Part shown: positions 22,992 through 61,484 of the stretch, piece after piece
Layout: every line of letters begins with the position of its first letter
How positions within the stretch are numbered: position 1 is the stretch's first letter
Origin: Leptonemataceae bacterium
GTDB taxonomy: Bacteria > Spirochaetota > Leptospiria > Leptospirales > Leptonemataceae
Length of the DNA stretch: 64,000 bases
Reading direction: 5' to 3'
NCBI GenBank assembly: GCA_965227295.1
Contig: OZ245742.1
Span: 1,664,001 to 1,728,000 of the forward strand
Translations under genes and position numbers: made by a program
Notes under the pieces: generated by a model
Seen by the model: only the letters and a program-made list of their open reading frames with translations
The model's database searches: none
Told to the model about the DNA's origin: nothing

Positions 22992-23158
22992 GAACGAAGA
23001 ATGGTGGGTCGGAACCGGGCACGAGGGCCGGCTTCCCAGGGGCCCTCGTCGTTGCGGGCCTCCGCTGCGTTCCAGACTCGCGATTCTCGGATCCTATCAC
23101 TAGAAGAATCGTGTAAAAACCACTGGCCGTCTCTCTTGGAACGTGTCACCCTTTCCCC

Positions 23159-23584
23159 ATGCACCATTCCTCCTTCCCCGCGCTTACCCATCTGGCCATG
23201 CACGTCCAGGACATCGAAGCGTGCATCGACTTCTACGCGCGCTACTGCAACATGAGTATCGTTCACGACCGACGGAGCGATGAAAAAGGCCAGCGTATCG
23301 TCTGGCTTTCGGAACCGGGGCGGGAAAAAGAAATGATCTTCGTCATCATGAACGGCGGACACCTCACCGAGCAGCCGACGAACAACTATGCGCACATCGG
23401 TTTCGCCCTGGAGAGCCGGGAGGCCGTGGATCGCGTTGCCGAACTGGCCCGCGCGGACGGCCGCCTGACCTGGCCGGCCGTGGATGAACCGTATCCGGTC
23501 GGCTATTACTGCGGCGTTACCGATCCCAACGGAACCGTGGTGGAATTTAGCTACGGCCAGCCCCTGGGACCGGGCGCGGAATAA
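23159..23584 (+). CDS. VOC/glyoxalase family protein
   Basis: LTHLAMHV...FY, HIGFA, DPNGTVVEFSYGQ. Confidence 0.9.
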   Translation: MHHSSFPALTHLAMHVQDIEACIDFYARYCNMSIVHDRRSDEKGQRIVWLSEPGREKEMIFVIMNGGHLTEQPTNNYAHIGFALESREAVDRVAELARADGRLTWPAVDEPYPVGYYCGVTDPNGTVVEFSYGQPLGPGAE

Positions 23585-23893
23585 GCACCGATCAGGATGC
23601 TGCTAACATTATCCTGACGAAACTTAGGCGCCGGCCGCGGCGAAATCGCTGATTCTGCGGCCGGCGGTCGTGTTTTCCCGGTTACCGCCGGGTCCGCAAT
23701 TTTTCCGCGCGGTCGCGGCCCTGTGCTTAAAATATAGTTTCCGGAATAGCCACATGTCATTACGGTGACTCCTATGGGCTACGAGTTTCGCCCTCGGGTT
23801 ACCGCCGCTTGCGAGGACCCGACCGGTGTGTCCGCATCTTCTCGTTCCGAAGACTCTCAATCTTCATCCGCCTCTATCGAATCATCCGAAAAC

Positions 23894-34142: not shown

Positions 34143-34175
34143 GTTTGAGTTTCTCGATATCCATAGTAGGGTTAC

Positions 34176-34544
34176 CTATCCTGTTGGTTCTTCTTTTCGT
34201 GTCTGACTCTGCTGCCGCCGGTTTGTTGCCGTGGATTCTCCCAGTCTCGCCTGCGACTTCGCTTGCAATTCCTCGGGCACTTCCATGCGCAACGCCTCTA
34301 AAATCGCCTTCGCAAGAATTCGGCTCTGCTTCACCACGCCATCCAGTCGATTCTGAAACCCGCCCTGTCCGTAGTCCTGCGCATAGCGCAGGATTCGACC
34401 GACATCTTCCGTTGTCAGTTCCACATGGGAATCCTGAATACGCTTCTGAAGTTTGCGGAGCAAAGATTGCCAGCCGCCGCTCCCCTGCACAGGAAGGAGC
34501 AGGCGATCACGCTGGGCATCTGTAAGTGGAATCAGAATTTTCAT
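34176..34544 (-). CDS. Small hypothetical protein with two GG(W/F)Q repeats
   Basis: GSGGWQSLLRKL and GQGGFQNRL; 16 bp downstream of the nuclease-like gene. Confidence 0.7.
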   Translation of the reverse strand: MKILIPLTDAQRDRLLLPVQGSGGWQSLLRKLQKRIQDSHVELTTEDVGRILRYAQDYGQGGFQNRLDGVVKQSRILAKAILEALRMEVPEELQAKSQARLGESTATNRRQQSQTRKEEPTG

Positions 34545-34560
34545 TGTAAAACGCGCAGTC

Positions 34561-35745
34561 TCACACTACGGCCCCAACCTTCGGCACCGTAGCCGGTAAC
34601 ATCGTCTTCTCCATCAGCAATTTCATGCACGTCTCGGTGTCCTCGGTTTCCAGCTCCGAAGATATTCCTATCCGCCAGCCACATTGATCCCGGTTTCCGT
34701 CCTGGCTCACAACCTTGCGGCACAGCGGACAATACTCACGTTTAGCACGTGCCAGAAGTTCAATCATCCTTTGCGGATTCTCAATTTCCGTGCGTGGTGC
34801 AATGGCGATCTCGTTCACTCCGAGAATTTCGTGAGTGTTCGGATTTAGATCGATGGAAAGAATCCCCAGCTCGTTGTCGGAAGCGAGCTTCACGAAGTTA
34901 TTGTAACGATCCGGATCGTAAAAGTTCTGCGTATCAAAAAGCGGGATGACGATGTAAGTATAGTTTGCAAACTCTTTATAGTTCACGGCCTGACTGATCG
35001 CGTCGGAGATATATTCGATGCTGTTCGTCGGCTTGAGTTCGAAGTTGTAGAGGAGAACTTCATCGCCCGCATAGCTGGCATTAATCTTCAGGCCCTCGTA
35101 ATCGACGTTCTGGTATTTTCCGAGCTCTCGGTCCTCTTGCGCGTGGTACAGGAAGTTCAGTTTGAGCGCGCGTTTGATTTCATTCAATGTATGCTGGCCG
35201 AGTTCTTGTTCCGTCTTGCGAGAATCCGCGGCCTGGAAATAGTATTTTTCGATGCCGACTGTAAAGTGGAGGCTGCGTGTGCTGAACTTAAAGCGATGAT
35301 TGTTGATAGTGCGCCCCGAAAATGCATTCTTCGCCTGTGAGAAGGAATAGCTCCCGGCGTATTCCTTTAAGTACGTGTGCAGGTTGGGCAACTCATCTTC
35401 CAGAACCTTGAGGAAGGATCCCGAGGTTGCCTTGCTCGCGTGATATTTCTCGGCAAGTTCATCGCCGACTTCCGCCGGCAGATCTACTGACGCGAGTTCG
35501 ATTGGACCGAACGGTCCCTTGGTGCGTTTCCAGGAAAAGCCGAGGTCACCCTGATATTCAACGAAGATATCACGGAATTCCTCCCAGGCAATCTCATCAA
35601 TCCGGCGGCCGGTCAAATGATTCAGGGCCTGCTTGTCTTCAAAAAGGAGTTCGAATTCGCTTTTTGCGATCTTGAAGTCGGATCCACGTGTGTCGAGTTT
35701 TACAAGGGCGGCTGCCAGGCGTTCGATTCTCTTAACTGTGTTCAT
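34561..35745 (-). CDS. Putative PD-(D/E)XK nuclease with C-terminal Cys4 motif
   Basis: GGAG RBS; TEQEL...NVD...FELK...AISQAVNYKEFANYTYIV; C-terminal CPLC...C...C. Confidence 0.7.
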   Translation of the reverse strand: MNTVKRIERLAAALVKLDTRGSDFKIAKSEFELLFEDKQALNHLTGRRIDEIAWEEFRDIFVEYQGDLGFSWKRTKGPFGPIELASVDLPAEVGDELAEKYHASKATSGSFLKVLEDELPNLHTYLKEYAGSYSFSQAKNAFSGRTINNHRFKFSTRSLHFTVGIEKYYFQAADSRKTEQELGQHTLNEIKRALKLNFLYHAQEDRELGKYQNVDYEGLKINASYAGDEVLLYNFELKPTNSIEYISDAISQAVNYKEFANYTYIVIPLFDTQNFYDPDRYNNFVKLASDNELGILSIDLNPNTHEILGVNEIAIAPRTEIENPQRMIELLARAKREYCPLCRKVVSQDGNRDQCGWRIGISSELETEDTETCMKLLMEKTMLPATVPKVGAVV

Positions 35746-35851
35746 CTGCTCTCCAAAGAGCGACCAAAAAGAATCTAGTCATCTGAACCTTGCAAGGAAA
35801 AATCACAAATATACATGGATCGGAAGCTAATACCGGCTCCATTATGAGTAA

Positions 35852-36082
35852 TCACCCCGTACTGACCTCAGATTTCGCCCGCACTGGGACAGTAAACCGA
35901 TCGATATCCTCCACCGTGATCGACGTCGGGTTGCCCGCGGCGGGACCGATATTTCGATGCAGGGCCTGCTGTATCGATACGGGCACTCGCTCCGCGTTCG
36001 TCGATACGATGCGGATTCCCGGATGCAATTTCTGCCCGGAGCAAGATGGAAGTACGATTGCGACCAGAAGGACGACACGCAA
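35852..36082 (-). CDS. Possible small lipoprotein or gene remnant
   Basis: TTG start, hydrophobic stretch and lipobox-like LPSC; short, no recognised domain. Confidence 0.3.
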   Translation of the reverse strand: MRVVLLVAIVLPSCSGQKLHPGIRIVSTNAERVPVSIQQALHRNIGPAAGNPTSITVEDIDRFTVPVRAKSEVSTG

Positions 36083-47716: not shown

Positions 47717-49102
47717 ATGGAAATTGTCGTTAAGCTGATTGTCTCGCTGGGAGTAGTCGCGATCTTCTTCGCGTTCTACTTCCGGCATTTTGTTTTTCGG
47801 CGATCCGTCGTCCTCCAGAGCCGCGGTTTATTCTACGGCATCCTCAGCGCCGCCGCGGCCCTGGCCCTGCAACTCTACGTCCTGCCGATCCTGCTGCCGG
47901 ACAATCGTCCGAAGTTCAGCCGCGCGCTCATCGATGCGGCGTTCATCGAGGAGGCCGTGCGCCTCTGTTTCTTAATGTACTATCTGCGCTTCGTCGCGTT
48001 TACGGGCGGCGGCAAGAACAGCAGCAATCAGTCGACGTTCACCGTGGTCGAGGGTGTCTTCGACGGCATTCTTCTGGGCCTGGGTTTTGCCCTCGTCGAA
48101 AATCTACATTACGGTTTGAGTTATCCGGGCTACGTGATTCTGTTGCGTTCGCTGACCTCGGCGCCGTTGCACGCGTTCATGGGCGGCATCATGGCCTTTT
48201 TTTTATCGTACGGTCTCTTGCGCGATACGTCGCACCGGAGCGGACGTCCGTCGCTGCGTTCGATGTATCTCTACGCCGCGGCCTTCGGCCTGCCGTTTAC
48301 GCTGCACGCCGCCTACGACCTGGGCTTCGTGCTGGGATCGTTCGCGTACGCCGTGCCCCTGGTGCTGATCGCTTCGTTCTTGATTACGGAGTACTGCATG
48401 CAGCGGGCGCGGCTCTACTTCGGTCGCAACGTGTTGGGCATGATCGGCATCGACGTCGACGATCTCGAAGTGTATCTCTATCAGCTCGAGTACGAGAAGT
48501 GGTTGGGAGACAGACAGGACGAGGATCGGCCGGAGCCGGAACTCTTTCATCGCCGTCGCCCGGGCGAAGTCTTCAAAGAAGCCGCGGGGGGCGTCGGCCT
48601 GGTCGTACTTGCGCTGGCGGCGGCGGTGTACTATCTGCTCGATCCCGGTGCCGCGGTGTTTCGGAGCCTGCCGTCCGCGGAGATTCGCATCTCTCTGTTG
48701 ATGGTCTATCCCGCCCTGACCGGATCCATGTTGATCTTTACGGACGTCGTGAACATGCTCTACCTGCGGGATCGACTGCTCAGCGTGCCGATGCCGATTC
48801 AGGTCCTGGTGGAACGCGACGGTGCGGCTTACTCCACGGTGGCCCTGGACGTTCTTCCGGCCGGCGTGTTCATCAGCGACGCCGAGCGCCTGGAACAGGA
48901 CGAGGAGGTGCGCTTAACATTCGAGACGGGCAGATTAACGAGCGGCCCGTACACGGCGCGACTGCGTTGGGCGAATCGCCTGAATCCGACGCTGCCGTTC
49001 GGGCATTTGCTAAGATTTGAGCATCGCAACTTAAGTTTTTTCTGGTTCCGCCTGCGCTACAAGTGGATGAAGCTGCACGGTAAATCGAAGGTGTTCGGCT
49101 AG
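47717..49102 (+). CDS. PrsW family intramembrane protease with C-terminal PilZ-like domain
   Basis: IEEAVR, GLGFALVENL, PLHA, LHAAYD; C-terminus ALDVLPAGVFI...LRWAN...LRF. Confidence 0.82.
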   Translation: MEIVVKLIVSLGVVAIFFAFYFRHFVFRRSVVLQSRGLFYGILSAAAALALQLYVLPILLPDNRPKFSRALIDAAFIEEAVRLCFLMYYLRFVAFTGGGKNSSNQSTFTVVEGVFDGILLGLGFALVENLHYGLSYPGYVILLRSLTSAPLHAFMGGIMAFFLSYGLLRDTSHRSGRPSLRSMYLYAAAFGLPFTLHAAYDLGFVLGSFAYAVPLVLIASFLITEYCMQRARLYFGRNVLGMIGIDVDDLEVYLYQLEYEKWLGDRQDEDRPEPELFHRRRPGEVFKEAAGGVGLVVLALAAAVYYLLDPGAAVFRSLPSAEIRISLLMVYPALTGSMLIFTDVVNMLYLRDRLLSVPMPIQVLVERDGAAYSTVALDVLPAGVFISDAERLEQDEEVRLTFETGRLTSGPYTARLRWANRLNPTLPFGHLLRFEHRNLSFFWFRLRYKWMKLHGKSKVFG

Positions 49103-49169: not shown

Positions 49170-50699
49170 CTAACGCGAAGAGGGCAAGCCCGTCACATCG
49201 TCCAGAGTCGCCCCGGCGAACCTCGCATCTTCCACATCCGCGCCCGCAAAACGCGCGCCGCTCAAGTCCGCCCCGCGAAAATCCGTCTCGCGTAGAATCG
49301 CGTCGCTAAAGTCTGCAAAGCGAAAGTTAGCCTCACGCGCGTCGGCCGAGCTGAGGTCGGCGTTCCGGAAGATCGTGCGGCGAAAGTCGGCCCGCCGCAG
49401 GTCCGCCCCGCGTAGATTCGCGTCCTCGAAATAACCGTAGATGAAGCGATCCGGCGCGGTCATGAATCGTAGAATGTCCTCACGCTCCGCCAGGTCCGGG
49501 TGCTCGGTAACGAAGGCCGGGGCGATGGAACGACCGGCCTGGCGCAGTTCGGAATCGTAGCGCAAGAGCCAGGGAGCCGCGCAGGCGGGCTCCGGCAGAA
49601 ACGGCTGCACTGCGCCGTCCGCTCCGAAGAATTGAAACTCGAGGGTATCGTCGAGCCAGTTTGTAAGATGAGCGAGGTTGCGAGAACGATCCGGCAGTTC
49701 GTCCGATACGCGCGCCCCGCGCAGATCGGCGGAGCCGAGATTCGCGCCGCGGAAGTTCGCAAGCAGCAGTCGCGCGTTTCGCAGATCGGCGGACAGCAGA
49801 ACGGCCCCGTAGAAAGATGCGCGATACAGGTCGGCGCCGCCCAGCTTCGCGTGCACCAGGTTCGCCCGGCGTAGATCGCTACAGCGCAGTACGGCCTCGT
49901 TCAGATTCGCGCGGCGCATGTCCGCGCGGGGCATGTAGAAACCGACAATCTCTCGCTCCTGGAGTTCGGCCTGCTGCAAATAGATCGTGCGCGCGAGCGG
50001 CGGAGATTCGCCGTTGAGGGCGCGGACTAATGTCCAGGAAAAAATAGTTAGTGCGAAGATTGCAAGAATCCGGTACGGAATGCCGGCATAGTACCGCGCT
50101 GTACCGCGGTTGCGGCGAATCAGCAAGAAGAGATTTACGCAAATACCGAAACAGGTGCCCATCAGCACAATGCCGGCCCGGGGATGGGGCAGGGCCTTCA
50201 CGGAAAACGCCAGCAGGGTCAGCGGCAGGACCCAGTAAAAGAGGATCTGTCCCAGGACCTCCGCCGCCCGGCTGCGCATCGTAAAAAAGTGCGACACGCT
50301 TTCGTTGCTGACTTCCAAACGCAGGCGATACCAACGTTCTAAGTACAGCTGTAAGTACGCATTGTACAACATTAAGGCGGAGGGCGCGAACATCAAGAAC
50401 AGGCCGTACTCCACTTGCACGCCGGTGAACGGCACGGCCACCCGGGCCTCGCTGTTCAGGAGCTCGACGTCGGACTTGCCCAGCGTGAGCAAACAGAACA
50501 CGCAGGCCCCCAACATGCCGAAGACCAGGCCGCGAATGGTTGCCGCCGCGGTTTCGTATTGTTTGTGGAGGTCGTCGGGTTCCAGGCCCAGGCTGTGATA
50601 GTACGGATACCACCAGGAGCGCGGAGGGCGATCCCGGTCGGCCAGGCGATAGAGAAGCGCCCAGGCGCAGGTACTCAGCCGGCCGGCGGTTCGGGCCAT
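49170..50699 (-). CDS. Pentapeptide repeat membrane protein; start uncertain
   Basis: About 5 TM followed by two blocks of A(D/N)LxxA(D/N)L repeats; overlaps the chaperone gene end by 25 bp. Confidence 0.85.
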   Translation of the reverse strand: MARTAGRLSTCAWALLYRLADRDRPPRSWWYPYYHSLGLEPDDLHKQYETAAATIRGLVFGMLGACVFCLLTLGKSDVELLNSEARVAVPFTGVQVEYGLFLMFAPSALMLYNAYLQLYLERWYRLRLEVSNESVSHFFTMRSRAAEVLGQILFYWVLPLTLLAFSVKALPHPRAGIVLMGTCFGICVNLFLLIRRNRGTARYYAGIPYRILAIFALTIFSWTLVRALNGESPPLARTIYLQQAELQEREIVGFYMPRADMRRANLNEAVLRCSDLRRANLVHAKLGGADLYRASFYGAVLLSADLRNARLLLANFRGANLGSADLRGARVSDELPDRSRNLAHLTNWLDDTLEFQFFGADGAVQPFLPEPACAAPWLLRYDSELRQAGRSIAPAFVTEHPDLAEREDILRFMTAPDRFIYGYFEDANLRGADLRRADFRRTIFRNADLSSADAREANFRFADFSDAILRETDFRGADLSGARFAGADVEDARFAGATLDDVTGLPSSR

Positions 50700-51169
50700 T
50701 CGATCCCGTCCGGATCGCTGAACTTTTTCGGCAGCTCACGCAGGTTTTTGCGATAGCGTCGCCACTGTTCGCGTTCGGCGTCCGTGATGGGATAGTCCGG
50801 AATCATGTACTTATCGCTCGCCGTGAGCAGTTCGTTCCGGCGTGCGCGGACTTCGTTCCAGCGCTTTTTTTCCAGGCGTTGCGCCCGGGCGTCCTCATCG
50901 CCGGAGAGCTCACCGTCGACGTAGGCGATCTCGCGGATCTGGAAGTCTTCGGCGCGAAGCTCGTCGTACTTCCGTTGCAGTTCCGCCCTGAGCTCAATGA
51001 CCGTGTGCGGGGCCGCGGGAATTTTCGGCATGCCCACGTGATCTTTCGGGAGATCGTCGCGCCAGGCGAAGAAGTCTTCGATGCGCTCGAAGCCCCGGGC
51101 GAAGGACTCGCATTCGACAGGATCGGCCACGACGGTCAGCAGGTGTTTGTTTTGGATGGCGGCGTACAT
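50675..51169 (-). CDS. Phage tail fibre assembly chaperone-like protein
   Basis: WNEVRARRNELLTASD...PDYP...WRRYRKNLRELP...IEWPEPP. Confidence 0.88.
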   Translation of the reverse strand: MYAAIQNKHLLTVVADPVECESFARGFERIEDFFAWRDDLPKDHVGMPKIPAAPHTVIELRAELQRKYDELRAEDFQIREIAYVDGELSGDEDARAQRLEKKRWNEVRARRNELLTASDKYMIPDYPITDAEREQWRRYRKNLRELPKKFSDPDGIEWPEPPAG

Positions 51170-51190
51170 GTAATTTTGCTCCGTTAGAAG

Positions 51191-54100
51191 TTAGTCGATT
51201 TTTTCCAGGGTGAAGGAGTTGTGGTGTTCGCTGTAGTGCATATTCATAGTGCCGTTGTTGGCCCCGTGCAGGACGTCGCCTTCCTTCAAGAAAAGGGTCA
51301 GGTCGGTGTTGCTTTCGATCAAATAGGTGCCACTGTGCCCGTACGAATACTTAAAGACCAACCCGTTCAGATGCCAGCCGATGGAAGCGTAGTTGTTGGC
51401 GATGTAGTTCGTCTTCAGGCGGTACGTGCCGGACTCTTTGATGTACCAGGCGCCGTGCTGGTTGCTGTAGACGACGTTTTTCGTGCCATAGGGCACCGGC
51501 ATTGCCACCGAGTTCTGGAGGGAGCCGCGTACTCGCTCGCAACGAAAACGATCGCCGGTGCCGTTGCCGTAGCTGGTGCTCTTCGATACCTGGCTCCACA
51601 CGGACGGCGACTTACGACGCCCCCGCGCAACCAGATCGCGGAGTTCGCGCGTTGTGTAGTTTTTCGCGTCGTAGACGATGAGATCGTCGTTCGTAATCCC
51701 GTCGCCGCCGCCCACCAGATCGGCGAGCGTGGCCGACTCGTGACGTGCGTAGTGATTCGCGCGGTGCACGGGTGTCACCACTTCGATCGCGCCGGCGTAA
51801 TGATAAAAGCCGCTCGTGATATCGCTGACCACTTCAATCCTGTGATCACCGAGGGGGAGGCCGAGAATCGAAATGGAACTCGCGTAGTCGCCGTCGCGAC
51901 CGGGTGTAAAGACGCCCGTCGACGGATTGATGGAACCGCTGGTCGTGGATGTAACGTAACCGAGTAGATTGGAACTACCGTCGATGTAGATCGTAAAGCC
52001 GGCCGTGTCGCTGATGTCGCGAAAGCGCAGCACGGCGCCGGTGCCGTAAAAACGCAGGCCGTAGCGGATGTTCTTCGTGACGTTACCACCCTGTACGATC
52101 AGGCCGCCGATGTCCTGCGGCTGCGGGGCCTCCACGTAGTTCCAACGGATGTCGGTGGCGGAATCCTCATCGTAGTAAAAATCTCGCGTGCCATGCGAGC
52201 GCCGGGTGCCGATGGGCTGAACGTTCACGGAGGGTTCCGTTTGTTGCACGACGTCCGCGAGCCGCGAGTATTCACCGAGAACGAGAAAGTTCTCCGGCAG
52301 TTCCGCGCGCCGGGGCTGAAAGATTTCGAAGTATTCGAACACCTGCGAGGTGTGATCCCGGGAGATCTGCACGCCGTCGAGGGTGATGATGGTCTCCGGA
52401 TTATTCTCGGCATCGGGCACGCGGAACCATTCGACGGTGTGCGTTCCGAGCGGCAATCCCGAGCAGAGATCATACGAGGTGTGCCGGTTGCGCGAGTGGC
52501 GTGTATACTTCTGAATGTCCTCGCGCACGCCGACCCGTAGTCCCGTACCAAAGAAAGTTAAGCGAAAGAATCCGTTGCTGTTATAGGTGCGCACGGCCGG
52601 CGTATCGTAGTAGTCGGTTTCAACGGTCTGACCGGTCAGCGACGTACAGCCGTCGTCCATCACGAAGGCGCGGTTGCTGTTCGAGCGAATCGTATCGAAG
52701 CCGCCGAAGACCGTGGCCGTGGCGTTTTTGTCGCCGTTGCCGAACTCAAAGGCATGCAGTCTCTCGGAACGCTCCTCGCGGGAATAGTCCGGTGCCTGGT
52801 CATCAATGACCGGGCGGGACTGGCCCTGATCGCGTTCGTCTTTTATGCTGCGTGCTTCGAAAGGTACGAACTGTTTGCTCGCGGAGTCGAAGACGAGCAC
52901 GCTGCCGGCGACATTGTAGCTGCTGAGCGGGCTGCGATAGTAAGACGGTACGAACGCGAAGGTATCGCTGTTGAAATTGAGGAAGGCGATGTTTTGACTG
53001 CCCCAGGACTTGATGCGCTGCATGGGAGCGAAGCGGGTTCCGTCCCAGCGCAGAATGTGGGACTCCGTGCTATGGGTGCTGCCGTTGTAGAACTGTCCGA
53101 CAGACACAAAGGTCTCGTCGCCGACATGTACGTGACGGATGTGACTGATGGCCGGCAGTTCGATTTCGTGTAGATACTCGAACTGCGTTCCGTTCCACTC
53201 GTAAACCTGGCTGGATGTATTGTAATTGCCGCCGTCGTAGTAGCTGCCGTAGATCAGGAAGTGCCGCGCCGAAGGACCGGACCCCACGCTTACGAAGTCG
53301 AGGTCGTGCGTCCCGGTGGTGGAGATGGACTGGAACGGTGACGATGTATCGAACTGAGTGCCGTTCCATTTATAGATGCGGGAACTAATATTGTGCGAAC
53401 TTCCGTTGTAGTTCTCCGAGAATGCGAGGTAGTGTTCGCCGTCGATCGTAAAGAACCTGGCGGAGTGGGCGTAATTGGTGCCGATGGACTGGAACGGCGT
53501 GGTGAAGTCGAACTGGGTGCCGTTCCATTTGAATATCTCGCAGTTGGTGTTGTAGGTGTAGACCGCGAGCAGGTAATGATCGCTGCCGATGGCAAAGTAC
53601 AGCCATTCAAGCAGGGCGTTTTTGACCAGGCTCTGGGTCTGTACAAACTGGCTGCCGTCCCATTTATGGACGGTGGATGTCAGGGATTGGCCGCCCGAGC
53701 TATTGTGGTTGACTGCCGCGAGGTAACTCTCGCCGTCGATCTCGAATGACTCCAGGCATGTGGCACCGGTCGTATCGATGTCCTGCACATGTTCCAGGTC
53801 GCCTCCGTTCCAGCGGAAGATTCGTGAATCCACGGCGTAGTTCCCGTTATAGTACTGCGGCACGGCCAGGAACATTTCCGAACCGATCTGAAACGGTTCG
53901 GAACGATACTGTCCCGCTCCCACAAACTCCGCCATCTCTCCGAGCGCCGAGGCCCGGGGCGGTACCCAGTTCACCGCGCAGCTAACCGTGGCGTTGCCGG
54001 CCAGGTCCCGGGACGTCGGATGCGCGAACCAGCTTACCCGCCCGCCGTAGAGCGGTCGGCGATGATTGAAGCTCGCGTTCGCAAAGGTGCCGTCAGCAGC

Positions 54101-56983
54101 ATCTAAGACCTTGTATACGCGCTGTTGCGAAGACGAGTACACCACCTCGTTCGCGACCAGGTCCGTACGGCTCGTAATGTCCGCCACCGTCCGGTCGATC
54201 GTATCCACCTGCGTCCAGACGACCTTGTCCGGGCTCAGCGCCTGGTGTTCATCCGCGAACAGGTTCTTTAAGTACTGCACGCGATAGACGCCGCCGTTGG
54301 TCGTGTTTAACACATGATCATGTACATTTAAGGCGGGGCTGAAAACCTGCGGTGCCGTGTGATCGGCGACGGCCAGAACAACGGGGACGTAGTTCTCCCA
54401 GGCATCGAGGCCCTCGTCGTAATAGCCAGGGCCGTCTTCGTCCAGGCCGTAGCCGTCACTCCAGGGATCGCAGAGATAGTCGTGGCTATCGGCAGCGACG
54501 TTCACTGCTTCGCCGTTGAACATTGCGGTTTGCGCGGGCAAATCGACCTTGTTTTCGTTGCCGGCGTCTTCGCGCGTGGCGATCATATCGAGACCGTAGG
54601 CGCTCCAGGCGTCGCCCAGCGTTATGCGTGCCGTGTGAATCGCCGGCGGGGCACCGGTGCGGAAGCCCTCTTTCGAAACGGAGATGGTATCCAGGTAACG
54701 ATTGTTCAGCGGCGTCGTTTCCATAATCGAAAACGCATCCACCGTGACCGGGCCGCCGCCGTCCAGTTCCACGGTCCAGCCGCCCTCGATGTTGCCGGGA
54801 TAGTGTAGAAAATCGAAGCCGTTGAAGTAGCCGCTGATTTCTACGTAGGCCCATTGACCGTACAACACGGGGCGAGTACCGTTAAGGTCATTGTACACTG
54901 TGACCGGCCCGTCCGAAACGATGCGCAGATCGTCCCGTCCCTCGATCTTATACACCATCCAGCCGTCGGGGCCGCGTTCGCCCATCGCTTCGACGATGTC
55001 GTCGAACAGAATGCGCCGGCGTCCCAGGAACATGCCCAGGGCCGGCGAAACCATGGGCTCGCGATTCTCAATTGTCGTAAAAAATAACTTACGGCCGAAC
55101 TCATCCGTGGTGCCGTGCTTCGCCGCGTCGTTGGTTGGATGCAGATACTCCGGCATCAGCCCGTAGTAACTTTGCGCGTTGCCGACGTTGGTGAGCATCG
55201 AACCGTCGCCGATAAACTTGCTTGCACGAACGTTACCGTCCACGTCCAGACGATGCAGCGAGGTCACCGCGTTCGGCCCCAGCGCCGTGTTGCCGTCGTT
55301 CGTAATGTTGCCGGTGACCGTGAGATTGCCGCCGGTGCTCGTATCGCCGCTGATGTCCGCCGTGCCGTCGACGGAAAGATTTTCCGCGACGTGCACGGCG
55401 TCGTCGATTTCCAATGCGCCGGAAGTGTGGAGCGATTCTAAGGTTCCATGAATCGTAACTTTGTCCTCGTCCTGGTCGCCCAGAAGGATGTCGCCGGGCT
55501 CGTGCTGGGTATCCCGCGCAATGACGTCGCCCTCGACGTAGAAGTCGCCTTTGATCGTAAGATTCTGATCCACCTGAACGTTCTGCTTAAACAACGCGTC
55601 CAGGTCGACGTTGAGACCCGCCTCGATGTTCAGCGTGCCGGTCATGGTATCGCCGAAGCGGTTGACCTTGTTTTCCACGAGGTTGTCCGACTTCGCAATG
55701 TCCACCAGGCTCGCGAACTGTACACGCGTGTCGGCGATCACGGACCAGGAATCCGAGAGAAGCTGTACAAATGCCAGGCGAGCGTATCTTACGATCTCAC
55801 TCCGCGGCGGTTGCGCCGTCGGCCCGCTGCCGTCGCAGGGCCATTCGATGCCGCGGTTGATCGTGCGCGCAGGAATCAACCAGTAGTCCCCGCTCTTGTA
55901 ATCACCGCCGCTCGCGAAGGTAATTTCAATGCCGCCTTCGAGTTCGAACCAACTATCGTCGTCGGGAATGGTGATCGTCCCGGTGCCGTCCACCTGGTCC
56001 CAGCGGCGAATCAGCGTCCGTCCGTCCGGAAACGAGGCAAGATCGTACGGTCCGGTGGCCGTGGCGGCGTCGATGGTGAGGGTGTCGCCCTCGGTACTCA
56101 GGATGCGTGCCAGGGTTCCGCTTTCGCCGCGTAACTCACGCCCCTCGTCAGTGAGTTCAATCCACTGCCCCGCGGCGAAAGAAGAGGCCGCATCCCGGGA
56201 CGAATCCAAAAACGTGAGCGTCGTACCCGAGGCGTCCGTCCACCCGGCGTTGACCGAGCCGTTTTCCCGGGACCACTTGAACGTTGCGCTGCCTGCCGCC
56301 CCGGCGTCGTGCACTTCCACGCGATAGAGGCGATTCTCCGGAATGGAATAGCCGCCGCGCAGTTGGGCCGCGCACGGATCCTGGCCCTGTTCCACCGTGT
56401 CGCCGGTGCGGGCGTTGAGCGTGGCCGAAGAACCGGCGATGAGATTGCTCCACTCCGTCGGCAGACTGTCTTCGGTAAGCGTTCCCGGAGCGTCGGCGAT
56501 CTTCAGTAACTTCACCTGGCCAAGAGTTTGCGAACGCCCGGCGGTGTCCGGGCCGCCCAGGGCCGGTTCGCGCAGCATGGAATCTTCGCGGTGACTGATC
56601 AAACGTTCACGGATTTGCAGATACACCAAATAGGCCGAGTCGTTGGCGGGATCGCTCGCATCGGGCAGAGAGTAGCCGGGCAATTGCGTCTGAGAACCGA
56701 TGGAACGATCGGCGTCGTTTTCGACGAGGATGCCGCCGGCATAGTAACGTCCTGCCGAAATCTCCAGATCGCTGCCGCCGCCGACGGCGCTGACCTGAAA
56801 GCCGCCGCCGGTAGCCGGCGCGCCCTCACCCGTGGAATCGTTCATGCGTTCACGGATTTCGCGTTGGATGATGTCGTGTTGTTCGTTCCAGTCGGCGTCC
56901 AGAATGGTGCGGCCCTGCTGCAGGCGGACGCCGGTATAACGTTTACTGGATTGATGGCTGTCGCGGGAAATGTCGCTCTTCAA
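51191..56983 (-). CDS. DUF6519 eCIS/phage-type tail fibre: beta-helix shaft, seven EAR/EPTP repeats, C1q-like C-terminus
   Basis: TTG start after GAGG gives MKSDISR...YTGVRLQQGRTILDADWNEQ; also REPALGGPDT, ENRLYRVEVH, FKWSRENGS and GDYWLIPART; LTIKGDFYVEG-type repeats; FIGDGSMLTNV. Confidence 0.85.
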   Translation of the reverse strand: MKSDISRDSHQSSKRYTGVRLQQGRTILDADWNEQHDIIQREIRERMNDSTGEGAPATGGGFQVSAVGGGSDLEISAGRYYAGGILVENDADRSIGSQTQLPGYSLPDASDPANDSAYLVYLQIRERLISHREDSMLREPALGGPDTAGRSQTLGQVKLLKIADAPGTLTEDSLPTEWSNLIAGSSATLNARTGDTVEQGQDPCAAQLRGGYSIPENRLYRVEVHDAGAAGSATFKWSRENGSVNAGWTDASGTTLTFLDSSRDAASSFAAGQWIELTDEGRELRGESGTLARILSTEGDTLTIDAATATGPYDLASFPDGRTLIRRWDQVDGTGTITIPDDDSWFELEGGIEITFASGGDYKSGDYWLIPARTINRGIEWPCDGSGPTAQPPRSEIVRYARLAFVQLLSDSWSVIADTRVQFASLVDIAKSDNLVENKVNRFGDTMTGTLNIEAGLNVDLDALFKQNVQVDQNLTIKGDFYVEGDVIARDTQHEPGDILLGDQDEDKVTIHGTLESLHTSGALEIDDAVHVAENLSVDGTADISGDTSTGGNLTVTGNITNDGNTALGPNAVTSLHRLDVDGNVRASKFIGDGSMLTNVGNAQSYYGLMPEYLHPTNDAAKHGTTDEFGRKLFFTTIENREPMVSPALGMFLGRRRILFDDIVEAMGERGPDGWMVYKIEGRDDLRIVSDGPVTVYNDLNGTRPVLYGQWAYVEISGYFNGFDFLHYPGNIEGGWTVELDGGGPVTVDAFSIMETTPLNNRYLDTISVSKEGFRTGAPPAIHTARITLGDAWSAYGLDMIATREDAGNENKVDLPAQTAMFNGEAVNVAADSHDYLCDPWSDGYGLDEDGPGYYDEGLDAWENYVPVVLAVADHTAPQVFSPALNVHDHVLNTTNGGVYRVQYLKNLFADEHQALSPDKVVWTQVDTIDRTVADITSRTDLVANEVVYSSSQQRVYKVLDAADGTFANASFNHRRPLYGGRVSWFAHPTSRDLAGNATVSCAVNWVPPRASALGEMAEFVGAGQYRSEPFQIGSEMFLAVPQYYNGNYAVDSRIFRWNGGDLEHVQDIDTTGATCLESFEIDGESYLAAVNHNSSGGQSLTSTVHKWDGSQFVQTQSLVKNALLEWLYFAIGSDHYLLAVYTYNTNCEIFKWNGTQFDFTTPFQSIGTNYAHSARFFTIDGEHYLAFSENYNGSSHNISSRIYKWNGTQFDTSSPFQSISTTGTHDLDFVSVGSGPSARHFLIYGSYYDGGNYNTSSQVYEWNGTQFEYLHEIELPAISHIRHVHVGDETFVSVGQFYNGSTHSTESHILRWDGTRFAPMQRIKSWGSQNIAFLNFNSDTFAFVPSYYRSPLSSYNVAGSVLVFDSASKQFVPFEARSIKDERDQGQSRPVIDDQAPDYSREERSERLHAFEFGNGDKNATATVFGGFDTIRSNSNRAFVMDDGCTSLTGQTVETDYYDTPAVRTYNSNGFFRLTFFGTGLRVGVREDIQKYTRHSRNRHTSYDLCSGLPLGTHTVEWFRVPDAENNPETIITLDGVQISRDHTSQVFEYFEIFQPRRAELPENFLVLGEYSRLADVVQQTEPSVNVQPIGTRRSHGTRDFYYDEDSATDIRWNYVEAPQPQDIGGLIVQGGNVTKNIRYGLRFYGTGAVLRFRDISDTAGFTIYIDGSSNLLGYVTSTTSGSINPSTGVFTPGRDGDYASSISILGLPLGDHRIEVVSDITSGFYHYAGAIEVVTPVHRANHYARHESATLADLVGGGDGITNDDLIVYDAKNYTTRELRDLVARGRRKSPSVWSQVSKSTSYGNGTGDRFRCERVRGSLQNSVAMPVPYGTKNVVYSNQHGAWYIKESGTYRLKTNYIANNYASIGWHLNGLVFKYSYGHSGTYLIESNTDLTLFLKEGDVLHGANNGTMNMHYSEHHNSFTLEKID

Positions 56984-57162
56984 AAGGGAACCTCGAGGCA
57001 GATGTGCTACCCGTCTGTAACCCGGGATCCCCTTCCGCTGCAATGCAAAGAGCGGCAAAGCTACTCAGCTTAGATAAAATTCAGGACATTCTTGCAAAAT
57101 ATGAAACGCCGGCCGCGCCGGTTTGTGCAACGTTAAACCGTTCGAGGAGGAACGTTGCGTGC

Positions 57163-60138
57163 TCACGGGATTTCCAGATCTTTGAGCTTATTGTAGAAGG
57201 TTGCACGCTTAATGCCCAGCAAACGCGCCGCCTTTTGTTTGTTCCCGTTGCTCGCGGAAAGGGCTTCTTCTATTATTAACTTCGAATAATCCCGCACCAG
57301 ATCATCGAAACTCTTCTGATGTATGGAGAGTTCCGGTGAAACTTCCGGCGCGCGAGAAACGCCTCCGAAGTTTGGCTGCTGCAACTGCCGCGGCAAATCC
57401 TCGACGCGCAGCGTCTCCGTGCCGGCGTGAATGAGCGCATGGATGATGGTGTTTTCCAGTTCACGAATGTTGCCGGGCCAGGTATACGAGCAGAGCGTAT
57501 CCAGCGCACGATGATCGATGCCGCTCACCGGCTCTCCCAGTTCTCCGGCGTACTTTTCAATAAAGTGATGCACCAGGGCCGGAATGTCTTCGGCCCGATC
57601 GCGCAAAGCGGGCACCTTGAGTTCCAGGACGGAGATGCGGTAATAAAGATCTTCCCGGAAGCGGCCCTGGCCTTGCTCTACGAAGAGGTCGCGATTCGTG
57701 GCGAACACGAAACGACAACGCGCCTCGATTACTTTATCACCGCCCAGGCGTTGGAAGCGACGTTCCTGCAGCAGGCGCAGGAGCTTCGGCTGAATTTCCA
57801 GGGGCATCTCGCCGATCTCGTCGAAGAACAACGTGCCGCCGGCAGCCTGTTCCACGCGCCCGGCGTGACTCTTTTTCGCGTCTGTAAAGGCGCCGCGTTC
57901 GTGGCCGAAGATTTCGGACTCCCACAAAGATGCCGGCACAGCCGCGCAGTTGATCGCCACAAAGGGGGCGTCGCTTTCCCCGGAGGCTCCGTGGAAGGTG
58001 CGAGCCACTAACTCTTTGCCGGTACCGGTTTGTCCGGAGATGAGCACCGGTTGCGAGCGTGTGCCGTAGCGCCGGGCGTCCTCGTAAATGCGCGCCATGG
58101 CCTCGCTGGCGTAGACGAGACTTTTGTTGTCGCCGACACTGCGGTGTTTGATCACCTCGCCCATGCCGCTTAAGTACTCCGAGAGTCGATGGATCTTCGC
58201 CTCGGCGCGTCCTTTGAGCCGGCGAATTTCTTCAAAGAGGACGGCGTTGCGAATGGCGAGGGCGAGGGAAAACCGAAAGCTTTCGAGCAGCATAATCTCA
58301 GACGTCTCGTAGAACAGGCCGCCCCGGCGCGGTCCCAGGACCAGGTACCCGAAGATCTCTTTGCGAAACGAAAGCGGGGCACAGAGCTGGAAGCCGTGCT
58401 CTTTTAACGCATCAATGACTCCGTAAATCGTTTCGATGGTACTCGCGTACTTCTCTTTCAACTCCGGGGCGTGATCAAAGGGCTGCCCCGAGTACGTTTC
58501 CAGGAGGATCACCGTATTGAGATACGGAAAGAGATCTTCCGGGGCTCGGAGGAAGCGCGCAACGAAGGCTTCGCCGCTGATGACTGCGCGCAGGCTGTCG
58601 GGGAAGTCGCCCGCGGAGTGCGCGCGATTTTCGCGATCGGCAATGATGATGAAGCCGCGCTCAAAATCCAGCAGCCGCCGCAACGTATCCAGGATGCGAT
58701 GCAGCAAAACATCGATGGCGCCGGCGTCGTTCGCGTCGCTGTTGTTCGTGTCGGTCGCTTCGTTGTCGCCGGCATCGAGGGCGAGCAGTTCGTCCTTGAT
58801 CGTTTCGGAGTTTCGCAGATGGTGAATCAGCTCCGCCTGATGCGCGTTGGCCAGGCGTTCCTGTTCCAGAGCCGCCTCCCGGGCGGCCAGGGTTTGTCGT
58901 CGCAATTCATTGTAACGATCGCCGACCGCGAGCGACAGGAAGATCGCCTCGGCCGCCGTGCCGGCCTGAAAGCCGTACTCCGTGATCGTCGTGCTCGGGA
59001 GCAGTCCCCATACTTTCAACGCGTACAACAGGCCGCCGAAGGACAGCGTATACCAGGCGAGCAGATAGAATCTTGCAAAGCGATGTCCGGCCCGCAGCGC
59101 GTACATTCCGGCGGCAATGATCAATACCACCGTACCCATGCCGAGCAGCACGGCGACGCGAATCAAGTAGAAGTAATCGATACCGGTGAAGGCCAGCGCC
59201 GCGGTCAGCAGGGCGGCCACCATGGCCGCGCGCACGAAGGCGTGCAGGCGCGGAGTGATTAACCGTAGATTCAGAAACGCCGTTGCGAACGCCAGCGAAA
59301 CGAAGATGGCCACCGAAAAGAAAAACGCCGTGGCCTCCCGGGCGATCCATAGCGACTCGAGTCCGAACCAGGCGAAAGCGAACTCACTCAACAGGCCGTT
59401 CAGTGAAAGTTGAAACAGTCCGTGCAACGTAACCAGGGTCGCCGCGTAGTACAGAAAACTCAAGTCACGCACCGAGACGAACAGGAAGATGTTGTAGATG
59501 AGTGTAACGGCAATGAGGCCGTAGTACAGACCGAGGCTGAAGCGCGTGTTCATGGTGTGCGCGTGGAAGTCCTCCGGTGAACGCAAGGCTAAAGGTACGT
59601 TGAGAGAATCTTTGCTGTGCACGCGCAGGTAGACGGTCCTGGTGGACCGGGGCGGAAACTCGATCGAAAACGCAAAGTTACGCTGCGCCGCGGCGTGGCG
59701 GCCGGCCATGCCGAAAAGGCGTCCCGCGCGTCCTGCGAGTTGCGGTTCGGCGTCGCGCGCGTCGAGAAGGAAGACGTGCACCGAGTCGAGCAGGGGATAA
59801 CCGATTTCCAGCAGGCGCCGGGCCGGGCGATCTCCGGGGTTGCGCACATCGAAACGCAACCACACGGCCTCGCGCACATAACCGAAGTTCGGCGTCGCCG
59901 CGGTGGTCGGACGAAACTCCGCCTGGCCGGCCAGAATCCCGGCGAGCACGGCCCTCACATGATCCGTTTCGGCGGCCGCGGGGCGTGCGGAGTCGGGTTC
60001 GATCCAGGAGGACGCGTGCAGACCGGGCGATCCACGCCCGGCCGTTGTCTCCAGCACGATGGAAGGCCCGGCGGAGTTCCGGCTGTCGCAGGCCGAAAAA
60101 GTCAGAAAGAGAAATACGAAGCAAATGCGGCGAGTCAT
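57163..60138 (-). CDS. Membrane-bound sigma54 enhancer-binding protein (7TM-DISM, GAF-like, AAA+, Fis HTH)
   Basis: NFGY...WLRF and GLYYG 7TM-DISM motifs; GQTGTGKE, GAFTDA, FDEIGEM, FREDLYYR, WPGNIRELEN, AARLLGI. Confidence 0.93.
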   Translation of the reverse strand: MTRRICFVFLFLTFSACDSRNSAGPSIVLETTAGRGSPGLHASSWIEPDSARPAAAETDHVRAVLAGILAGQAEFRPTTAATPNFGYVREAVWLRFDVRNPGDRPARRLLEIGYPLLDSVHVFLLDARDAEPQLAGRAGRLFGMAGRHAAAQRNFAFSIEFPPRSTRTVYLRVHSKDSLNVPLALRSPEDFHAHTMNTRFSLGLYYGLIAVTLIYNIFLFVSVRDLSFLYYAATLVTLHGLFQLSLNGLLSEFAFAWFGLESLWIAREATAFFFSVAIFVSLAFATAFLNLRLITPRLHAFVRAAMVAALLTAALAFTGIDYFYLIRVAVLLGMGTVVLIIAAGMYALRAGHRFARFYLLAWYTLSFGGLLYALKVWGLLPSTTITEYGFQAGTAAEAIFLSLAVGDRYNELRRQTLAAREAALEQERLANAHQAELIHHLRNSETIKDELLALDAGDNEATDTNNSDANDAGAIDVLLHRILDTLRRLLDFERGFIIIADRENRAHSAGDFPDSLRAVISGEAFVARFLRAPEDLFPYLNTVILLETYSGQPFDHAPELKEKYASTIETIYGVIDALKEHGFQLCAPLSFRKEIFGYLVLGPRRGGLFYETSEIMLLESFRFSLALAIRNAVLFEEIRRLKGRAEAKIHRLSEYLSGMGEVIKHRSVGDNKSLVYASEAMARIYEDARRYGTRSQPVLISGQTGTGKELVARTFHGASGESDAPFVAINCAAVPASLWESEIFGHERGAFTDAKKSHAGRVEQAAGGTLFFDEIGEMPLEIQPKLLRLLQERRFQRLGGDKVIEARCRFVFATNRDLFVEQGQGRFREDLYYRISVLELKVPALRDRAEDIPALVHHFIEKYAGELGEPVSGIDHRALDTLCSYTWPGNIRELENTIIHALIHAGTETLRVEDLPRQLQQPNFGGVSRAPEVSPELSIHQKSFDDLVRDYSKLIIEEALSASNGNKQKAARLLGIKRATFYNKLKDLEIP

Positions 60139-60475: not shown

Positions 60476-60491
60476 TGGCACGGCGGTTGCA
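60476..60491 (+). promoter_or_regulatory. Sigma54 -24/-12 promoter of the lipase gene
   Basis: TGGCAC-GGCGG-TTGCA, exact consensus TGGCAC-N5-TTGCW. Confidence 0.9.
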
Positions 60492-60551
60492 GTAGCACAC
60501 CAGAACATCGCGGAGACAAACAGACCGCGGCAATGCATCAGGAGAATGAAC

Positions 60552-61484
60552 ATGCGAAACGTACTATCTCAAATCACCACGCTGGCCCTCGTCACAGGGC
60601 TTGCGCTGGCAACGACTCCGCTTTTCGCGGGCGGCGGCGGATCAAAGCCGCTCGACGGCAGCCATCCCATTGTGCTGTCCCACGGTCTCTTCGGCTGGGG
60701 CAACGATACCAGCGGTGCCATCAACATCGCCAACTACTGGGGCGGCATGGACGAGTATCTGCGTTCCCAGGGCGCGGCGGTCTACGTGCCGGCGAAATCC
60801 GCACTGGGCTCGAACGAGGTGCGCGCACAACAATTAAAAGACAAGCTCAATTACTGGATGGCCGCCAACGGTCATGGTAAGGTCCACATCATCGGTCACA
60901 GCCAGGGCGGCCTCGACAGTCGGTACATGACGGCAAACCTCGGTATGCGCAGCAAGGTCTCCACGCTCACGTCCCTCAACACGCCGCACCGCGGTTCACC
61001 CATCTCCGATCTCGTTTCGGGCACGCCGTCCTGGTTTCAGGGCGGACTCAGCGCCATCCTCGAAGTCCTGGCGACGCTCATCTACGGTGACGGCAATCAG
61101 AACGGCCTCGACGCCCTGGCGTCGCTCAGCATCGCGAACTCCAGCGCATTCAATCAATACACCCCGAACGCGTCCGGCGTGAAGTACTACAGCTACGGAT
61201 CGAAGATCACCATCCCCGACGCGATTCAACATCCGACCATGTTCCTGTTGCATCCGTTCTGCGGCGCGGGCGGCCTCTTCTACGGCCAGGGATTTTCCAA
61301 CGACGGACTCGTAAACCTCAGCTCCATGAAGTGGGGCACCTGGAAGGGCGGACCGAGCTACGGCATTCTCATCACCGGTATCGATCACCTGCAGGCGTCG
61401 AACACCTTCGGCCTCGGCGAACTGTGGTACGACGTGGAAGGTTACTTCCTCAAGATGGCGAAGAACGCGAAGGACAATCAGTAA
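60552..61484 (+). CDS. Secreted triacylglycerol lipase (alpha/beta hydrolase, family I-like)
   Basis: AGGAG RBS, signal peptide, PIVLSHGLFG, IGHSQGG, TPHRGS, NDGLV, DHL. Confidence 0.92.
   Translation: MRNVLSQITTLALVTGLALATTPLFAGGGGSKPLDGSHPIVLSHGLFGWGNDTSGAINIANYWGGMDEYLRSQGAAVYVPAKSALGSNEVRAQQLKDKLNYWMAANGHGKVHIIGHSQGGLDSRYMTANLGMRSKVSTLTSLNTPHRGSPISDLVSGTPSWFQGGLSAILEVLATLIYGDGNQNGLDALASLSIANSSAFNQYTPNASGVKYYSYGSKITIPDAIQHPTMFLLHPFCGAGGLFYGQGFSNDGLVNLSSMKWGTWKGGPSYGILITGIDHLQASNTFGLGELWYDVEGYFLKMAKNAKDNQ

Follow-up and report, generated by a model that had tools for sequence, protein, structure and literature searches.

In phages of the P2/Mu type and in R-type pyocins, the tail fibre gene is followed by a small gene encoding an assembly chaperone. 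The tail fibres of extracellular contractile injection systems (eCIS) carry N-terminal baseplate-anchor domains of five kinds, one of which, eBAP5, corresponds to DUF6519 (Nachmias et al., Nat Commun 2026, PMC12923769). According to that study, whose catalogue covers eCIS loci and five genes on each side, 658 eBAP5 genes are found in eCIS loci, eCIS fibres are located downstream of baseplate genes in ~90% of cases, eBAP3 and eBAP5 fibres are proposed to use Tail_P2_I adaptors, and eBAP5 is correlated with Actinobacteriota; the eBAP5 fold is described as shoulder-like, related to the shoulders of phage receptor-binding proteins (RBPs) and to the crown of the thylakoid-anchored contractile injection system (tCIS), with an inserted small β-barrel or sandwich. 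Here, we analyzed a 64,000-nucleotide stretch of the genome of a Leptonemataceae bacterium (hereafter, the window; G000:C1:1664001-1728000, on a single 5.94-Mb contig) that contains a gene for a DUF6519 tail fibre followed by a chaperone gene. Together with a third gene, for a pentapeptide-repeat protein, this pair had been described in an initial annotation as an orphan specificity module that either plugs into an eCIS or tailocin encoded elsewhere or works alone as an adhesin.

The comparative analysis of sequences described below suggests that the two genes probably encode an eBAP5-type tail fibre and its chaperone that are supplied in trans to an eCIS lacking fibres of its own, most likely the locus denoted eCIS3. 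Genome-wide searches for eCIS genes and for paralogues of the fibre, which the initial annotation had proposed, yielded three eCIS loci and six further DUF6519 genes. The seven DUF6519 genes encode proteins of 1218-1988 aa and are scattered at 0.44, 0.62, 1.72 (window), 2.62, 3.68, 5.47, and 5.80 Mb, none of them adjoining any of the three eCIS loci. Each locus encodes a sheath, a T4_gp19 tube, Pvc16_N (DUF4255), Baseplate_J, and Tail_P2_I proteins, and eCIS3 additionally includes gp25, CIS_tube, eCIS_core, and AAA ATPase genes, with no stop inside any match, such that sheath, tube, Pvc16_N, AAA ATPase, gp25, Baseplate_J, and the core domain are combined in one cluster. The loci differ in what follows the Tail_P2_I gene (Table 1). 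The eCIS3 operon ends with the gene for a 750-aa Tail_P2_I-type adaptor, and the spacer separating this gene from the next one contains a terminator, a GC-rich hairpin followed by eight T; no fibre remnant was found in this spacer. Because three eCIS loci are present and one of them is without a cis-encoded fibre, the proposal that the fibre is used by an eCIS from another part of the genome gains support. The window itself is ~4 Mb away from eCIS3, and the nearest eCIS locus, eCIS1, is ~125 kb away; hence, the fibre gene is not in the usual context of eCIS fibres, inside an eCIS locus and downstream of the baseplate or adaptor gene. In agreement with the initial annotation, whole-genome family searches, in which capsid families were not included, identified no Phage_sheath_1, Pvc16_N, Baseplate_J, Phage_T4_gp19, Tail_P2_I, or Phage_integrase matches in the window.

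The assignment to eCIS3 is based primarily on a survey of the DUF6519 family. In genomes sampled at one per species, an alignment of the seven anchors retrieved at least 556 relatives; the 77 highest-ranking loci were extracted with flanks of up to 10 kb, and their open reading frames (ORFs) were searched with all proteins of the three eCIS loci. Outside Leptospirales, a homologue of the eCIS3 adaptor, mostly aligned over near full length, ends directly before the DUF6519 gene in 59 of the 65 loci. Among the others, two have eCIS3-type genes upstream that are not adjacent, four have less than 5 kb of upstream sequence and are uninformative, and none is an orphan. The best matches of the surveyed ORFs were to eCIS3 proteins in 300 cases, compared to 29 for eCIS2 and 12 for eCIS1. 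Given this adjacency and the dominance of eCIS3 among the best matches, the DUF6519 family is, as judged from gene order and similarity, tied specifically to the eCIS3-type adaptor. The 12 Leptospirales loci present a different picture: the adaptor is directly before DUF6519 in none of them, and six have no eCIS gene within at least 5 kb upstream, although in one of these six (contig 10 of G008), a Pvc16_N gene follows a few kb downstream. Two of the remaining loci are second genes of tandem arrays located after an adaptor, and four have less than 5 kb of upstream sequence. Within this sample, then, gene order indicates that orphan fibres are confined to this clade of Leptospirales.

The survey also recovered DUF6519 genes on archaeal contigs (L074, L083, L087, L089, L098, and L107, from Methanothrix, Methanosarcinales, Nanoarchaeia, and Nitrosopumilus). 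All these loci except the short-flanked L089 have the eCIS3-type adaptor and baseplate genes upstream, and L107 also encodes homologues of the sheath, tube, and ATPase proteins on the downstream side of the fibre gene.

Comparison with related genomes shows what the eCIS3 operon lacks. The sample consisted of 41 genomes including this one (G000), two of which, G001 and G002, are from the same genus; the close relatives are Leptospirales or Leptospiraceae metagenome-assembled genomes, in line with the Leptospirales-like origin that had been surmised from the sequence. G001 contains an eCIS (C2:1331098-1355999) that is syntenic with eCIS3, with 13 proteins sharing 42-87% identity and four showing weak or partial similarity. 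Between the orthologues of the adaptor (65% identical) and of the TPR protein, three tandem DUF6519 genes are located in G001 (open frames of 2668, 1630, and 5457 aa), and the arrangement in G002 is the same. G000 is without this ~30-kb fibre block and has 236 bp in its place. Altogether, there are 10 DUF6519 genes in G001 and seven in G002, three of them in cis in each genome. A cognate operon without fibres, combined with seven fibre genes elsewhere, makes G000 a clean case.

In both sister species, the cis array ends with a gene for a giant DUF6519 protein, with an open frame of 5457 aa in G001 (G001:C2:1301720-1318092; L028) and 5497 aa in G002 (G002:C10, near 268832). Furthermore, G001 carries a tandem array of four DUF6519 genes encoding proteins of 1808-2102 aa (G001:C2:1182699-1216000; L033, L034; L041, L042) that is ~115-165 kb away from the eCIS locus and has no eCIS gene in its flanks; thus, orphan fibres can occur as arrays.

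In a tree of 91 anchors (quick IQ-TREE search, LG+G4; L053, L090, and L099, being too short, were omitted), the 27 Leptospirales anchors all belong to a single clade (SH-aLRT support 99), which fits one acquisition followed by expansion within the Leptospirales lineage. The window fibre belongs to a subclade of five rows (four distinct sequences; support 100), together with G001_1822k, G001_4984k, and G002_1428k, and the chaperone-linked fibres of this subclade each have a long open frame. Full-length orthologues of the fibre, with 43-49% identity, are encoded twice in G001 and once in G002, in each case directly followed by a chaperone homologue (32-40% identity; in G001, the chaperone frame is intact to the stop), and in G008, a chaperone homologue (40%) is found just before a DUF6519 gene. 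No eCIS gene was found in the vicinity of any of these fibre-chaperone pairs, the flanks of which are not syntenic. By this comparison, the conserved unit is the fibre with its chaperone, an orphan in three species. The arrangement originally described is accordingly conserved only in part: the pair has been kept in three species, but the flanks and the linkage to the pentapeptide gene have not.

As first read from the sequence, the N-terminal portion of the fibre is a DUF6519 domain, matching the PF20129 profile with 161.6 bits (cut-off, 22.4) in two stretches over the first ~455 residues (102.6 and 62.5 bits in the whole-genome search). All invariant columns are retained, namely, 19 of 19 in an alignment of 34 rows covering the first 240 aa and 28 of 28 in an alignment of 42 rows and 475 aa. 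The AlphaFold2 (AF2) model of the anchor (predicted local distance difference test [pLDDT] 84.1; predicted template modelling score 0.83) was compared to known structures using VIA-align, which matched it to the RBP of lactococcal phage 1358 (4l92; Z 8.2, 137 aligned), a Haloferax virus tail fibre (9h5b; Z 7.0), Mtd (Z 6.7), TssK (5y0e; Z 6.1), and a baseplate chain of the Anabaena contractile injection system (7b5h_AA; Z 5.5, 168 aligned). Residues ~243-330 are modelled as a small barrel inserted into the domain, for which the same method found small β-barrel matches at Z 6-8. The set of matches is coherent but the Z scores are middling, such that the fold may be the shoulder-like one described for eBAP5 (PMC12923769).

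Among the seven proteins encoded in the genome, similarity is concentrated in this region: over the first ~450 residues, the window fibre is 41-47% identical to the six paralogues, and past the anchor and shaft, the sequences diverge. In BLASTP comparisons, five of the six share 44-54% identity with shaft residues 458-557, and the sixth is 31% identical over residues 458-636. The other six paralogues contain DUF2341 and Laminin_G_3 domains followed by Collar, C1q, or FG-GAP tips, and their immediate neighbours are unrelated genes (Usp, helicase, Uma2, and GTPase). The Collar tips of the eCIS1 cis fibres (G000:C1:1589409-1592335; last ~160 aa) share 42-51% identity with those of the paralogues at 438568, 2621380, and 5466722. 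This resemblance between eCIS1 tips and those of three orphan DUF6519 proteins indicates, at the sequence level, that receptor-binding tips are shared among fibres with different anchors.

Downstream of the shaft, the window fibre contains a phage-type fibre module that is interrupted by a propeller-like insertion. The module has 499 representatives at E ≤ 1e-3, and both halves were matched by 38 of the 71 rows listed when phmmer was run against the matches of the representatives. The two halves abut exactly in P0008 (t519/t519) and P0016 (t806/t806), and at this position, the window protein has 360 extra residues that match Pfam EPTP (PF03736; 101 bits, cut-off 21) and the EPTP domain of LGI1. 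EPTP was detected in none of the 44 module homologues scanned, and the stretch aligns in four close relatives (P0004, P0005, P0006, and P0009). These alignments identify the predicted EPTP propeller as an insertion that splits the phage-type module. The propeller of LGI1 (PDB 5y2z and 5y31) shares the EPTP repeats, with a sequence match over residues 1047-1329 (E 4.2e-6), but the similarity is weak (27.5 bits) and does not imply recent transfer, and the window copy is located inside a phage-type fibre module. Matches to the PHROG families of tail fibre, virion structural, or baseplate wedge proteins were found in a minority of the 44 homologues (5/44 for the top family), and CE2_N was matched in 8/44.

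The C-terminal 556 aa were modelled as a series of β-sandwich domains (AF2, pLDDT 76.5). With VIA-align, model residues 217-365 matched the CE2 N-terminal domain and the folds of the carbohydrate-binding modules (CBMs) CBM35 and CBM61 at Z 10-11. The tip (model residues 430-556) matched TRAIL (Z 13.8), C1QL1 (Z 13.0), and BclA (Z 11.3), along with the CBD of the short tail fibre of cyanophage A-1(L) (Z 10.0); in all, ~40 TNF, C1q, and BclA chains were matched at Z 13.8-10, and pLDDT in this block is mostly 64-89. A Pfam scan of the window fibre returned no C1q match, a search of the phage database with the last 556 aa returned no match, and Foldseek searches with the anchor and C-terminal models returned only low-TM multi-domain matches and were less informative than VIA-align. 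Overall, the fibre is a chimera in which an eBAP5 anchor is combined with a TNF/C1q-like tip and a phage-type module that the propeller-like EPTP insertion divides in two. Neither a signal peptide nor a hydrophobic or transmembrane (TM) segment was found in the fibre or the chaperone, which fits cytoplasmic assembly into a particle.

The chaperone was correctly recognized in the initial annotation: it matches Phage_tail_APC (PF16778) with 67.5 bits (cut-off, 26.6; E 9.3e-19) and PHROG 4912, 'tail fiber assembly' (E 7e-21), and no second Phage_tail_APC match is present in G000. Among phages, 14 records, including cyanophages, vibriophages, and a Paracoccus phage, matched the C-terminal third to half of the protein (33-57% of the query), and in four of these records the match is annotated as tail assembly chaperone. 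In these respects, the locus resembles the fibre-chaperone pairs of P2, Mu, and R-type pyocins: the family of the chaperone has matches among tail assembly chaperones of phages, the fibre gene precedes the chaperone gene, and, in the usual context of the fibre family, a gene for a gpI-like (Tail_P2_I) baseplate protein comes before that of the fibre. Unlike those pairs, the window genes are ~4 Mb away from the gpJ/gpI-like genes, and the fibre is several times longer and has another anchor domain.

Table 1. Features of the window and eCIS loci of the same genome. Positions are those of the window, except for the eCIS loci, which are given on contig G000:C1; residue numbering of P0001 begins 25 residues ahead of the TTG start of the fibre.
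Feature	Position (residues)	Strand	Evidence or description
Tail-fibre gene	51191..56983	minus	ORF and translation; 1930 aa + stop, TTG start; Pfam DUF6519 and EPTP
eBAP5/DUF6519 baseplate-anchor domain, ~430 aa	55694..56983 (P0001 26-455)	minus	Pfam PF20129, E 3.7e-47
Shaft region	55139..55693 (P0001 456-640)	minus	BLASTP to paralogues
Phage-type fibre module, first half	53930..55138 (P0001 ~641-1043)	minus	phmmer
EPTP-repeat propeller-like insertion	52844..53929 (P0001 ~1044-1405)	minus	Pfam EPTP, E 3.7e-29, 3 stretches
Phage-type fibre module, second half; β-sandwich domains, one CBM-like	51659..52843 (P0001 1406-~1800)	minus	
TNF/C1q-like jelly-roll tip, last ~124 aa	51194..51565 (P0001 1832-1955)	minus	VIA-align on AF2 model
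Tail-fibre assembly chaperone gene	50675..51169	minus	164 aa; Pfam Phage_tail_APC, PHROG tail fiber assembly
Pentapeptide-repeat membrane protein gene	49170..50699	minus	509 aa; Pfam Pentapeptide
Terminator-like hairpin between sigma54 activator gene and fibre gene	57105..57121	minus	Consensus scan, pattern match only
PrsW protease gene (flank)	47717-49102	plus	
7TMR-DISM/GAF/sigma54 activator gene (flank)	57163-60138	minus	
eCIS1	~1574215-1592335		After Tail_P2_I gene: two Collar-domain fibres, 500 and 460 aa
eCIS2	~2800360-2818434		After Tail_P2_I gene: 614-aa protein without Pfam match
eCIS3	5706418-5726961	minus	After Tail_P2_I gene: TPR gene 236 bp downstream

Under the scenario of supply in trans, the chaperone would help the TNF/C1q-like tip to trimerise, and the N-terminal anchor of the fibre would dock on the eCIS3 adaptor and baseplate during assembly in the cytoplasm. 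The distal part, with its CBM-like sandwiches, predicted EPTP propeller, and TNF/C1q-like tip, would recognize a glycan or protein of the target surface, and the six other dispersed paralogues, which share the anchor and have other tips, could provide several specificities on one chassis. Prediction of a complex between the eCIS3 adaptor (750 aa, 34-row alignment) and the first 240 aa of one fibre copy (34 rows) gave a score of 0.02, with the mark at 0.32, and is evidence neither for nor against this interaction.

Several observations weigh against a fibre dedicated to eCIS3. No motif common to the region upstream of the eCIS3 operon and those upstream of the seven fibre genes was detected, the best 10-mer, with one mismatch allowed, being present in 3 of the 8 regions, compared to 2-4 in shuffles. 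There are 1114 DUF6519 genes in InterPro versus the 658 in eCIS loci (PMC12923769). The structural matches of the anchor, at Z 5.5-8.2, are of a middling level that common arrangements can yield. As the 77 surveyed loci are the best of at least 556 relatives, orphans in other lineages may be missed. Finally, eCIS1 and eCIS2 also encode Tail_P2_I proteins (258 and 291 aa), which could provide the fibre with another partner. Such a role is made more attractive by the proximity of eCIS1 to the window and by the similarity of its two cis-fibre tips to the Collar tips of three orphan paralogues. Nevertheless, it appears quite unlikely that the fibre serves eCIS1 or eCIS2 rather than eCIS3: eCIS1 already has two cis fibres, the adaptor located just upstream of DUF6519 outside Leptospirales is of the long eCIS3 type and the best matches in these loci are overwhelmingly to eCIS3, and the sister species hold DUF6519 fibres within the eCIS3-type locus.

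The position of the gene among ordinary host genes, the dispersal of all seven paralogues, and the presence of domains of the adhesion type (predicted EPTP propeller, CBM-like sandwich, and TNF/C1q-like tip) could also be accounted for by a stand-alone surface adhesin or lectin in which the anchor has been re-used for another kind of attachment, and the many InterPro DUF6519 entries beyond eCIS loci (PMC12923769) are compatible with such re-use. This alternative of the initial annotation is not favoured and seems unlikely, given that the fibre is devoid of a signal peptide or hydrophobic segment, that the anchor retains all family invariants, and that the gene is paired with a chaperone of the type found with phage tail fibres. 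Moreover, DUF6519 is confined to Pvc16_N-bearing genomes among the 41 searched: it was identified in five (G000, G001, G002, G008, and G019), all of which have Pvc16_N, itself present in these five plus G009 and G022, although these counts come from few related genomes (three genera with DUF6519), are not independent, and are suggestive only. In the order's second family, represented by 16 genomes, neither DUF6519 nor Pvc16_N was matched. If the fibre gene were a functionless remnant, decaying after the loss of a prophage or eCIS locus, this would explain the absence of structural genes within 64 kb and the lack of conserved flanking synteny between species. We regard this explanation as very improbable because the reading frame is uninterrupted for 1930 aa, the pair of fibre and chaperone genes has been kept in three species through long divergence, the composition is host-like, and the clean fibreless eCIS3 operon argues for fibres supplied from elsewhere.

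Supply of the fibre in trans to eCIS3 has implications for the interpretation of eCIS loci: if it occurs, the lack of fibre genes in an eCIS locus need not mean that the system has no fibres or is intracellular, and the target range cannot be derived from the locus alone. A more far-reaching and distinctly tentative possibility is that the eCIS3 chassis is armed in trans from all seven dispersed fibre genes, each locally regulated, such that the cell might retarget its particles or mix specificities. Dispersed copies of components away from the core cluster are familiar from type VI secretion, where they form orphan VgrG/PAAR/Hcp islands. The likeness, which is one of analogy only, lies in dispersed, exchangeable parts that combine a conserved docking portion with a variable functional portion; however, VgrG, PAAR, and Hcp serve as spike and effector modules in a system anchored to the cell, whereas the window encodes a receptor-binding fibre of a released particle, and no homology is implied. 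Should arming from dispersed genes be real, it would represent the eCIS counterpart of orphan VgrG/PAAR islands, and locus-based catalogues would undercount eCIS fibres. A natural design of this kind, with one anchor and variable tips, would in addition provide a ready model for the retargeting of eCIS particles.

Our literature search found DUF6519 in one study alone, in preprint and journal form, and found none on contractile injection systems in Leptospirales and none of relevance on orphan or elsewhere-encoded eCIS tail fibres. Both the fibre class and the identity of its members as eCIS fibres are already published in that study (PMC12923769). The window fibre shares with the eBAP5 fibres described there the DUF6519 anchor, the association of the family with a Tail_P2_I-type adaptor, and a C-terminus that is long and modular and includes binding domains of lectin-like and eukaryote-like kinds; a shoulder-like fold with an inserted small β-barrel may be shared as well. 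It differs from them in being located outside an eCIS locus, as one of seven dispersed paralogues in a genome in which the cognate operon is fibreless, in the EPTP insertion, and in its Leptospirales host, in contrast to the reported correlation with Actinobacteriota; also, it has a separate Phage_tail_APC chaperone, whereas the main text of that study includes only the S74 intramolecular chaperone. The main text does not treat orphan positions of fibres or mention EPTP, although its supplementary tables may include this genome or genes of this kind. Compared to that text, the new elements are the dispersed, lineage-specific expansion of orphan fibres alongside a fibreless cognate operon, the occurrence in Leptospirales, and two building blocks unmentioned there, the separate phage-type chaperone and the predicted EPTP propeller inserted in a phage-type fibre module.

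The organization of the locus is as initially described: three tightly linked genes on the same strand, with a gap of 21 bp between the fibre and chaperone genes and an overlap of 25 bp between the chaperone and pentapeptide genes, have a GC content of 0.58-0.60, close to the genome value of 0.598, and are flanked by the PrsW protease and sigma54 activator genes. The longest ORF of the fibre extends to 57058, but the N-terminus conserved in the family starts at the TTG at 56983, which is preceded by GAGG, resembling a ribosome-binding site, 7 nt upstream. The overlap suggests that the pentapeptide gene is probably co-transcribed with the fibre-chaperone pair in this genome. Its product matches Pfam PF00805 with 122.6 bits (cut-off, 20.2), has ~4 TM-like segments between residues 50 and 229, and scores below the cut-offs of all NCBIfam equivalogs (Qnr, MfpA, HetL, and PipB2). 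Orthologues with 52% identity are encoded in the two sister species (G001:C2:2260039-2261481 and G002:C18), neither of them near any DUF6519 match. Because these orthologues are far from DUF6519 genes and the linkage to the fibre was found in this genome only, we rejected the pentapeptide protein as a part of the module; its suggested role as an accessory or immunity factor is not borne out either.

Consensus pattern scans of the window found no sigma54 promoter before the fibre gene and no sigma70 site between the activator gene and the fibre start. Sigma54 consensus matches with up to two mismatches number 25 in the window, compared to 24 expected, and seven terminator-like sites were found in the region, compared to 9.1 expected. 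The only sigma54 site without mismatches in the window (TGGCAC-N5-TTGCA; 60476-60491, plus strand) is 55 nt upstream of a plus-strand ORF (60546-61484) that is divergent from the activator gene. As this sole perfect site precedes that ORF, the activator probably controls the divergent 60546-61484 operon rather than the fibre gene.

Elsewhere in the genome, a minus-strand run of ORFs of 148, 188, 161, 155, 1071, 272, and 3002 aa (G000:C1:422976-438257; L018, L019) is divergent from the DUF6519 paralogue at 438568; genome-wide searches identified no sheath, tube, or baseplate family matches in this run. Within the window, GC content dips at 22001-24000 and 34001-36000, to 0.533 and 0.516, compared to ~0.60 elsewhere.

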